A DNA stretch of 20,000 bases from an uncultured Ignavibacteriales bacterium (GCA_964464605.1 CAYXJN010000004.1:304997-324996), one strand, 5' to 3'; counted from the first letter of the stretch, positions 10,647 through 20,000 are shown. Made by a program: numbers and translations. The notes: generated from the sequence alone by a model not told the origin.

Positions 10647-10674
10647 TTGACAGCCCTGTTTGCCGATATATATT
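10647..10674 (+). promoter_or_regulatory. Sigma70 promoter of the tRNA-Gly/tRNA-Cys pair
   Basis: TTGACA-N16-TATATT ending 18 nt upstream of tRNA-Gly. Confidence 0.7.
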
Positions 10675-10692: not shown

Positions 10693-10765
<73 letters not shown>

Positions 10766-10786
10766 TTTTTTCATTCAGGTCAAAGC

Positions 10787-10858
<72 letters not shown>

Positions 10859-10984
10859 TAAATAGCTTCCTCGAAAATTTCAATTCATTCATCACAGCAT
10901 TAACGAATGGTTTTGTTGCACACATACGGTAGCTATGTGTAAGAAAACAATAAGTTCAATTTTGTTGATGCTTACAGTAGCGAG

Positions 10985-11082
10985 AAGAAAATAAGAGGGC
11001 ACTGCTCCGTGTGGTTAGAGGGGGCTAGGAAACTAACCGGGTCAGCAGAGAGTTACCCTCGTCATTGTTGTCAGTAAGTAAT
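10985..11082 (-). ncRNA. Candidate unannotated small RNA (interrupted hairpin with C/U-rich loop)
   Basis: Lies downstream of a near-consensus promoter with no substantial ORF. Nested helices GAGGGUA/UGCCCUC, CUGCU/AGCAG and GGUUAG/CUAACC, loop UUUCCUAGCCCCCU, followed by UUAUUUUCUU. Ends are approximate. Confidence 0.55.
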
Positions 11083-11166
11083 GCGATCAATATAGATTTA
11101 GAGAAATGACTGTCAACCGCTTTTTGACAGAATCTGTCAGTAATGTGATGGTGTCAAAATCTGACA
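11069..11166. repeat. Array of six TGACA/TGTCA pentamers forming overlapping palindromes (putative operator array)
   Basis: TGTCA at 11069, 11111, 11135 and 11152; TGACA at 11125 and 11162. Perfect TGACAGA-a-TCTGTCA at 11125-11139. Confidence 0.6.
11089..11116 (-). promoter_or_regulatory. Sigma70 promoter for the candidate sRNA
   Basis: Minus strand TTGACA(11116-11111)-N16-TATATT(11094-11089), with the same hexamers and spacing as the tRNA-Gly promoter. Confidence 0.7.
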
Positions 11167-11185
11167 TCGCATCGTACGCGATGTC
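11156..11185 (-). terminator. Possible terminator hairpin after the DUF1573 gene
   Basis: GACATCGC-N7-GCGATGTC (11163-11185) followed on the minus strand by AGAUUUU, a weak U-tract. Confidence 0.4.
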
Positions 11186-11197
11186 CGCGCAATGCGA

Positions 11198-11908
11198 TCA
11201 GAAGCGAACGATTTTCACCGGTGTCGTCAGGATCGTCGGCTCAGCCGCTTCGTCGCGATCGAGACGAATGTAAACGGTGAAACTGCCGTGAAATGTTCCT
11301 TTGCCGAGATTCGGATTCGGAGAAACTTCAAACAGGAACTTTTCATTCTTGTTGGCGGTGGGTTTAATTGATTTGACGGTGAACAGCGTATCTCCGATGC
11401 GTATGCTGTCGACTTCGGCGTAATCATGTACGGCACTGATGATTTCAAACTGTTTCGACGCTGCGCCCGGCAGGAAAAACAAGCTGAAGGGAACCGGTTT
11501 CAGTCCTTCATACCATTGTCCCACGATCGAGACATAGTACAATTCAAACATCGGCGATTCCGGGTTATCCGTGTAGACTTTGAATGATTTGTTCGTCGGG
11601 CCGTAATAATCTTTCGTGTCGAAATTCACGACAATGCGGCCGGTATCTCCGGGGGCTATAAGAGAATCGATAATGCGTCCGGTTGTGCACTCGCAATTGA
11701 TTTCGAGTTTCGTGAGTTTGACCGCCGTTTTTCCGGTATTCGGAATTCGAAAGGTATGTTGTACGGCAAAACCGATACCGACATGGCCGAAATTATGCAC
11801 CTGCTCATTGTAGCTCAGTTGAATTTGGGCAATAGCAGGAATACTGCAAAGGAGCGTAACGGTAAATACTGTGGTTGTAAACAAGCGGGGAAGTGAGCGA
11901 CGTTTCAT
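11198..11908 (-). CDS. Exported DUF1573-domain (Ig-like) protein
   Basis: Signal peptide ending AIA-Q; HNFGHV...HTFRIPNTG...NCECT...IAPGDTGRIVVNFDT...NKSFKVYTD matches the DUF1573 pattern (CxCT). Confidence 0.75.
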   Translation of the reverse strand: MKRRSLPRLFTTTVFTVTLLCSIPAIAQIQLSYNEQVHNFGHVGIGFAVQHTFRIPNTGKTAVKLTKLEINCECTTGRIIDSLIAPGDTGRIVVNFDTKDYYGPTNKSFKVYTDNPESPMFELYYVSIVGQWYEGLKPVPFSLFFLPGAASKQFEIISAVHDYAEVDSIRIGDTLFTVKSIKPTANKNEKFLFEVSPNPNLGKGTFHGSFTVYIRLDRDEAAEPTILTTPVKIVRF

Positions 11909-18264: not shown

Positions 18265-18342
18265 CGGAGCGTAGCGCAGTCTGGTTAGCGCACTCGCTTG
18301 GGGTGCGAGAGGTCGGCCGTTCGAATCGGCTCGCTCCGACCA
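18265..18342 (+). tRNA. tRNA-Pro(GGG), CCA encoded
   Basis: Acceptor CGGAGCG/CGCTCCG-ACCA, anticodon arm CTCGC-TTGGGGT-GCGAG and GTTCGAATC. Confidence 0.97.
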
Positions 18343-19945: not shown

Positions 19946-20000
19946 CGGGGCGTAGCGCAGTTGGTAGCGCGCTTGGTTCGGGACTAAGAGGTCGCTGGTT
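19946..20000 (+). tRNA. tRNA-Pro(CGG), truncated by the window edge
   Basis: CGGGGCGTAGCGCAGTTGGTAGCGCG, anticodon arm CTTGG-TTCGGGA-CTAAG, then the start of the T-arm. Confidence 0.92.

Follow-up and report, generated by a model that had tools for sequence, protein, structure and literature searches.

Yfr1 of the cyanobacteria is a short small RNA (sRNA) found phylum-wide, in which two stem-loops flank an unpaired C/U-rich motif that does not vary. RepG of Helicobacter pylori works without Hfq. As reported, RepG is small, stand-alone and highly conserved, and the C/U-rich loop of its terminator binds by pairing to a G-repeat in a 5' untranslated region (UTR) (PMC8295292). RoxS/RsaE of the Firmicutes is described as a trans-acting sRNA of ~100 nucleotides (nt) with a wide taxonomic range and several exposed C-rich regions that pair with G-rich sites (PMC5419742). 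Work on the cuckoo/CcsR RNAs (RSs0680) of Alphaproteobacteria reports the loop motif CCUCCUCCC on compensatorily varying stems, present in several copies per genome, and proposes C-rich loops as a signature of sRNAs that pair with ribosome-binding sites (PMC4615179). In this study, we analyzed a 20,000-nt stretch of DNA from an uncultured Ignavibacteriales bacterium (GCA_964464605.1 CAYXJN010000004.1:304997-324996), referred to here as the window, and found on its minus strand, at 11116-10985, what is very probably a real and conserved RNA gene. Judging by its sequence, the RNA belongs to a so far undescribed family that spans the greater part of the candidate phylum Zixibacteria. It has no match among the Rfam 15 families, and a full-text literature search limited to "small RNA" wording found no published small RNA from Zixibacteria. 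To our knowledge, this phylum is known only from metagenomes. A first-pass annotation of the window had proposed an unannotated minus-strand small RNA gene with a stable-RNA-type promoter at this place, and the sigma-70-type promoter, the terminator, the lack of an Rfam match and the conservation with covariation all bore this out; of the checks it had named, the Rfam search returned no family, and conservation and covariation in relatives were both found.

When the intergenic region was used as a blastn query, 59 of the 61 relatives gave a match, which always consisted of the hairpin and the U-run (query 140-213, corresponding to window 11061-10988) and of no other part of the spacer. Across the phylum, blastn matched 167 of 285 genomes. 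A covariance model, R1, was built from 79 distinct cores, and at E <= 0.01 it matched 134/151 phylum genomes, in 17 of the 19 families searched. R1 had no match in the families f20 (0/11 genomes) and f8 (0/2), and a relaxed search of five genomes from these two families gave chance-level matches only (21.6 bits at most), of which the best two were read and are not homologues. The term "lineage-specific" used in the first-pass annotation thus holds only at the phylum scale, and it understates a distribution of this width. Conservation starts sharply at CGAGGG and ends in the U-run, and a cTTGACA box is all that the otherwise unrelated flanks have in common. Over the core (68 nt), the window is about 85% identical to its relatives, with a range of 75-87%, its copy being among the more divergent orthologues (83 bits vs ~105), and the relatives found by blastn show a median identity of 98.5% to the majority sequence (n = 69). 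The protein encoded by the adjacent DUF1573 gene is 23-43% identical (median 34.8%). A pattern scan of all species found at least 119 loci with the apical pattern; among the matches listed, Candidatus Zixiibacteriota is named, and some are labelled Ignavibacteria or Calditrichota, two of which belong, by coordinates, to the same GTDB order as the window. The viral contigs held no exact match to the apical pattern. Because the RNA is conserved in relatives, a chance origin is excluded.

The predicted transcript folds into one long hairpin of three helices, all coordinates below being on the minus strand. The region 11082-10985 has a minimum free energy (MFE) of -25.6 kcal/mol with a z of -3.08, and 2/200 shuffles fold as well; the plus strand of the same region folds no better than shuffles (z +0.58). 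In the outer helix, GAGGGUA (11054-11060) pairs with UGCCCUC (10995-11001) in both the MFE fold and the family consensus, and compensatory changes occur at 7/7 pairs in the model-fitted alignment A3 described below. The middle helix is formed by CUCUCUG (11046-11052) and CACGGAGCAG (11002-11011, with a bulged C at 11004); its consensus part is UCUG (11049-11046) with CGGA (11009-11006), which the MFE fold extends, and 4/4 consensus pairs show compensatory changes. Its 3' strand is the most variable part of the family, and the position of the bulge shifts between relatives. Next comes a C-rich internal loop of 8 by 3 nt, unpaired in the MFE fold and the consensus, whose 5' side reads CUGACCC in the window (11039-11045) and CUGUCCCU in most relatives; it is highly conserved among orthologues and not kept in paralogues. 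The apical stem pairs GGUUAG (11033-11038) with CUAACC (11013-11018) in the MFE fold and the consensus, with compensatory changes at 4/6 pairs, and the window has a compensated U-A where most relatives carry G-C. It is capped by an invariant 14-nt loop, UUUCCUAGCCCCCU (11019-11032), which is presumed to be the interaction surface. The outer helix, apical helix, loop and tail agree with the three-helix structure given in the first-pass annotation, but its CUGCU/AGCAG register for the middle helix differs from that of the MFE fold and the consensus.

The same annotation had argued for the minus strand from a wobble pair in the outer helix, and this argument extends to the whole family, since among the 79 sequences, pair 7/66 reads U-G (35 sequences) about as often as U-A (36). 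These wobbles, together with the U-run and the far lower model scores on the reverse strand (e.g., 22 vs 62 bits), settle the strand. The region had also been described as being without a real open reading frame (ORF), and we likewise found no minus-strand ORF of at least 40 amino acids (aa) in 10933-11105. A 7-codon ORF, ATG ACG AGG GTA ACT CTC TGC TGA, exists in the window. A small ORF as the product was rejected, since this ATG is not kept in relatives and stops occur in all three core frames.

Compensatory base changes indicated that the secondary structure is conserved in the aligned sequences. In a MAFFT alignment of the 79 cores, RNAalifold recovered the three helices; of their 17 pairs, 5 show compensatory changes. 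In A3, which holds 89 sequences including divergent homologues and paralogues, 97.2% of the cells are paired and 15/17 pairs show compensatory changes, values in which the apparent conservation is inflated, as A3 is fitted to the model structure, the relatives are not independent and part of the sequence set was gathered with a loop-containing pattern. None of 500 shuffles reached these values, and when the partners were slid by 1-3 columns, 48-59% of the cells were paired, with 3-7 such pairs.

The gene has a predicted promoter of its own. In the window, the promoter-site search placed a -35 box TTGACA at 11111-11116 and a -10 box TATATT at 11089-11094 on the minus strand, separated by a 16-nt spacer (11/12 matches for the site at 11116-11089). 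The hexamers and spacing are the same as those of the site at 10647-10674 on the plus strand before the glycine transfer RNA (tRNA) gene, an identity already pointed out in the first-pass annotation and confirmed by the site search. The whole region has no excess of promoter-like sites (4 found vs 3.1 expected from shuffles), and for this reason the match in the window alone proves nothing. Of 132 distinct related loci, 114 have an exact TTGACA no more than 80 nt before the core, compared with 2/132 shuffled upstream regions, and the distance from the -35 box to the core is most often 37-39 nt. The -10 boxes of the relatives are A/T-rich and less uniform, and in most of them they end 9-11 nt before the core. 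From the position of this box, the transcript of most relatives is predicted to start 0-5 nt before the hairpin. In the window, a start near 11082, likewise placed from the -10 box, would give a 5' leader of ~21 nt (11062-11082). The U-rich tail UUAUUUUCUU (10985-10994) is the predicted 3' end and would form an intrinsic terminator together with the hairpin; a U-run follows the hairpin in nearly all relatives. The RNA is thus predicted to be about 98 nt long in the window and about 75-80 nt in most relatives. Taken together, a promoter at a conserved distance and an intrinsic terminator suggest that the small RNA is an independently transcribed gene. Among the 24 entries listed for public sequencing runs with this stretch, no RNA data set appears.

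Two more hairpins were observed at 11110-11195 on the minus strand, between the DUF1573 stop and the small RNA. The first, GCAUCGC...GCGAUGU, directly follows the DUF1573 stop codon. The second is CUGUCAA-AAAGCGG-UUGACAG, the 3' arm of which is the -35 box itself, and it is followed by UCAUUUCUCU, giving a terminator-like site. Both may serve termination of the upstream gene or occlusion of the promoter. Elsewhere in the genome, runs of seven G were seen inside the spacers of near-consensus TTGACA...TATATT promoter-like sites, on contig 1 at 383094 (minus strand) and on contig 3 at 260809 (plus strand).

The apical loop stays fixed within the family. Its five C are kept in 88-89 of the 89 aligned sequences, paralogues with unrelated stems included, in a set that was partly gathered by a loop-containing pattern. 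At least two model matches were found in 42 of the 134 positive genomes, a few of them duplicates at contig ends. The weaker matches have outer and middle helices of unrelated sequence and retain the loop UU(U)CCUAGCCCCC(C)UCU in the apical hairpin. The genome of the window itself has a second and longer member, predicted at ~165 nt, on contig 8 at ~88742-88900 (L239:1501-1662, minus strand), which scores 29.3 bits with R1. This member has a TTGACT promoter, two 5' hairpins and a 3' terminator module that reads GGGAGGAC...UGGUAG[UUUCUGCCCCCU]CUACCA...GUCCUCCC and is followed by a U-run. As the stems covary while the loop stays fixed, even on the unrelated stems of paralogues, the loop appears to be the working surface, and we consider it quite probable that the RNA acts through it.

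The small RNA lies in a 340-nt gap that has the stop of a DUF1573 gene on one side and a convergent pair of tRNA genes on the other. The upstream neighbour (11198-11908, minus strand) encodes a DUF1573 protein of 236 aa with a match to the Ig-like domain PF22544, and this protein is expected to be secreted. The tRNA-Gly(GCC) and tRNA-Cys(GCA) genes (10693-10858, plus strand), found by tRNA searches, are convergent with the small RNA. In the related loci, 62 upstream ORFs were found, of which 49 were scanned after near-duplicates had been omitted; 39 of them encode a same-strand PF07610 (DUF1573) protein of ~230-280 aa. The other ten comprise two LuxR-type response regulators, one each with PALP, PAS, TPR, LysE and HYR, and three without a Pfam match. 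The DUF1573 genes end 64-351 nt before the core, and the downstream gene is usually convergent.

Some further observations were made on the surroundings. At the relative locus L007:1068-1225 (plus strand), a tRNA gene pair also adjoins the small RNA, but there it precedes the small RNA in the same orientation. Within the window, ARAGORN gave a 78-nt tRNA-Pro(GGG) at 18265-18342 (plus strand) that the Rfam tRNA model did not report at its gathering score; a tRNA cut by the window end (19946-20000) was found by Rfam and is absent from the ARAGORN list. On contig 8 of the genome, three copies of a stretch with ATGGCGGGGTCTACGAGACG lie 7-8 kb apart on the plus strand, near 144129, 151204 and 159031, and these may be repeated genes or a repeat element.

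The comparison with known RNA classes returned tRNAs only when the window was searched against Rfam 15 at the gathering score. With 10850-11210 at E <= 10, there were chance-level matches and nothing over the hairpin, and at E <= 1 neither the majority form nor any of three paralogues gave a match on the RNA. The AilA thermometer was rejected as a chance-level match (22.5 bits against a gathering score of 81) at 11099-11183, upstream of the RNA. The bacterial small signal recognition particle (SRP) RNA was rejected because the genome has its RF00169 match on contig 9 (120941-121039, 72.4 bits) and none here. A CsrA sponge of the CsrB/RsmZ kind was also rejected, as the RNA has one hairpin loop without GGA; CsrA itself is present in the genome.

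Our proposal for the function is one of pairing in trans. The sigma-70-type promoter would drive one long three-helix hairpin, which would double as the intrinsic terminator. The RNA would act in trans, with its exposed C/U-rich terminator loop, above all CCCCC-U-C, pairing with G-rich RNA. By binding to ribosome-binding regions, or to G-runs in 5' leaders, the RNA would alter the translation or stability of its targets. In orthologues, a second exposed C-rich stretch, UCCCU in the internal loop, may add contacts. The genome of the window uses Shine-Dalgarno (SD) sites, since AAGGA, AGGAG and GGAGG are enriched upstream of starts. Neither Hfq nor ProQ was found in this genome, which is rated 100% complete, and chaperone-independent pairing by a structured C-rich loop would fit with that. 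A stand-alone small RNA gene acting by loop pairing with G-rich RNA is in our opinion the best overall explanation, in which we place about as much belief as doubt. For base pairing to G-rich RNA rather than protein binding, which is suggested by analogy with described sRNAs, our belief is even at best and perhaps slightly below that.

A number of results weigh against pairing with G-rich RNA. Loop pairing at 2245 translation-start regions was no stronger than inside genes (means of -8.44 vs -8.53 kcal/mol), and strong sites of -14 kcal/mol or below numbered 150 at starts and 154 inside genes. The first-pass annotation had called the loop "anti-SD-like", a label that found no specific support here: starts paired no better than gene interiors, and the dip at the SD position reflects composition, since shuffled loops of the same composition pair equally at -12 to -9. 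At the DUF1573 start region, no consistent pairing was seen across 53 loci (mean of -10.3 vs -8.8 kcal/mol for gene bodies; window -4.8). Genome scans for the motif and its near-complements gave a full match only on the gene's own antisense strand, and pairing with 16S ribosomal RNA (rRNA) was within background, being equalled by 20% and 37% of random segments. A G-repeat target of the RepG type was rejected because G-runs of at least 5 are too common (1776 in the genome) and the long ones are mostly inside ORFs. These target scans are weak negatives, as they cover one genome and take gene starts from rough ORF calls. The inflated conservation in A3 is also to be counted here. Moreover, sRNAs that pair with messenger RNA (mRNA) do not usually have a whole 68-nt hairpin that is nearly identical across an order; this is more typical of RNAs held by proteins or by the translation machinery.

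This last point leads to a different explanation, in which the RNA is a phylum-specific housekeeping RNA held by a protein, as a ribonucleoprotein or a decoy. Its pyrimidine-rich loop, in orthologues also the internal loop and the 5' strand, would be the recognition site for a conserved protein, such as an RRM protein, or for the translation machinery, such as the tRNA-Leu(GAG) anticodon arm. We regard this as a serious alternative, though less likely than not. It would account for a hairpin that has stayed almost unchanged in sequence, at a level otherwise seen for rRNA and tRNA, next to proteins that are ~35% identical. Changes at paired positions within the apical stem are rare in the 79 orthologue cores, a single model match was obtained in 92 of the 134 positive genomes, the promoter is near consensus, and the absence of a signal in the mRNA target scans points the same way. 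The genome also has four RRM_1 genes (open frames of 108-131 aa) and neither Hfq nor ProQ was found in it; RNA chaperoning in the phylum may rest on RRM proteins, and to name these four small proteins as candidate partners of the small RNA is speculation. A Cas6b-like protein as the partner was rejected, as neither Cas6b domain was found in the genome of the window. Against a protein-held RNA, however, no protein gene is consistently linked to the locus, the usual DUF1573 neighbour being replaced in 10/49 loci, and the paralogues keep just the loop and its closing stem, as in seed-bearing sRNA families. A narrower form of such an explanation, in which the RNA senses or sequesters tRNA-Leu(GAG) by pairing of its loop with the anticodon arm, is highly improbable to us. 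The tRNA (contig 9, 162959-163042) gave the best duplex of 46 tRNAs at -23.7 kcal/mol, with 15/18 positions of its arm CUUGAGGGGGUAGCGGAG paired, including wobble. In this duplex, CUC of the loop (the Leu codon read by GAG) faces the anticodon, and the duplex goes on with CCCCC along the 3' side of the loop and stem of this arm. Among 400 shuffled loops, 4.5% reach the same energy against any tRNA, but this significance is marginal for one of several target classes tried. The pairing would also need the melted anticodon stem of a folded and probably modified tRNA, there is no sign of a second contact like that of T-boxes, and the near invariance of both loop and tRNA makes co-variation uninformative.

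The remaining explanations concern the locus rather than a partner of the loop, or a known class of RNA. The hairpin could be a cis element, that is, a terminator or 3'-UTR structure of the upstream DUF1573 operon, with the small transcript as a by-product or a 3'-UTR-derived RNA. The frequency, strand and distance of the upstream DUF1573 genes fit with this, as do the form of an intrinsic terminator and the usually convergent downstream gene. On the other hand, the TTGACA box stands between gene and hairpin in the 114 of 132 loci mentioned above, and it is kept where a response regulator, PALP, PAS, TPR, LysE or HYR gene is upstream; that the box persists whatever the neighbour speaks against a mere DUF1573 terminator. 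Paralogues elsewhere, such as that on contig 8, also have their own promoter, and terminators need no fixed 14-nt loop and normally evolve fast. We therefore hold the cis element to be improbable. A miniature 6S-type RNA that binds RNA polymerase had been suggested in the first-pass annotation, in a longer form with 5' CUUAC paired to GUAAG at 10975-10971, and it seems to us very improbable. The hairpin is irregular and has an asymmetric internal loop, and a role for 6S may be unfilled, as RF00013 finds nothing in the complete genome of the window, a search that also misses 9/14 control genomes. However, neither the CUUAC leader nor the GUAAG beyond the U-run is conserved, and the predicted transcript of most relatives begins at the hairpin, so that the longer form did not hold up. 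Known 6S RNAs are ~150-200 nt long. The RNA described here, at 75-98 nt, is about half of the 187-position 6S model, and its conserved unit is 68 nt plus the tail. The conserved 8 by 3 nt internal loop is no large central bubble and is lost in paralogues, and the RNA has no Rfam match.

With its promoter, hairpin, fixed loop and U-run, the family is easy to recognise, which makes it fit for RNA family databases and usable as a marker of Zixibacteria in metagenomes and metatranscriptomes. It would also offer a starting point for the study of post-transcriptional control in organisms apparently without Hfq and ProQ. Should the tight conservation be due to a protein or ribosome partner and not to mRNA targets, the RNA would form a new class of stable RNAs beside the 6S, SRP and Y RNAs.

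Among the described sRNAs, Yfr1 resembles the Zixibacteria RNA in being a short, phylum-wide RNA with an invariant C/U-rich motif, which differs in lying here in the terminator loop; as to homology, the Zixibacteria RNA matches no Rfam family. The likeness to RepG is that of a conserved stand-alone sRNA with a C/U-rich terminator loop as the interaction site, presumed in our case, and no Hfq was found here. However, RepG consists of two stem-loops and occurs in a single genus only, in contrast to the one long hairpin of the Zixibacteria RNA, which is found phylum-wide, and the two have no relation at the level of sequence or Rfam; the scan for a G-repeat target found none. Like RoxS/RsaE, the Zixibacteria RNA is predicted to expose C-rich stretches, namely UCCCU in the internal loop and CCCCCUC in the apical loop. 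It is no homologue, since the RsaE family of Rfam is unmatched, its architecture is another, and it is conserved much more tightly. The Zixibacteria paralogues keep the C-rich loop on variable stems, as the cuckoo RNAs do. According to the cuckoo report, CCUCCUCCC is repeated on 2-4 adjacent hairpins and the founding RNA is Hfq-bound (PMC4615179), whereas UUUCCUAGCCCCCU occurs once, on the terminator hairpin, in a genome in which no Hfq was found. Taken together, the exposed and conserved C-rich loop suggests by analogy that the Zixibacteria RNA may be placed with the C-rich-loop sRNAs of the RepG, RoxS and cuckoo kind.

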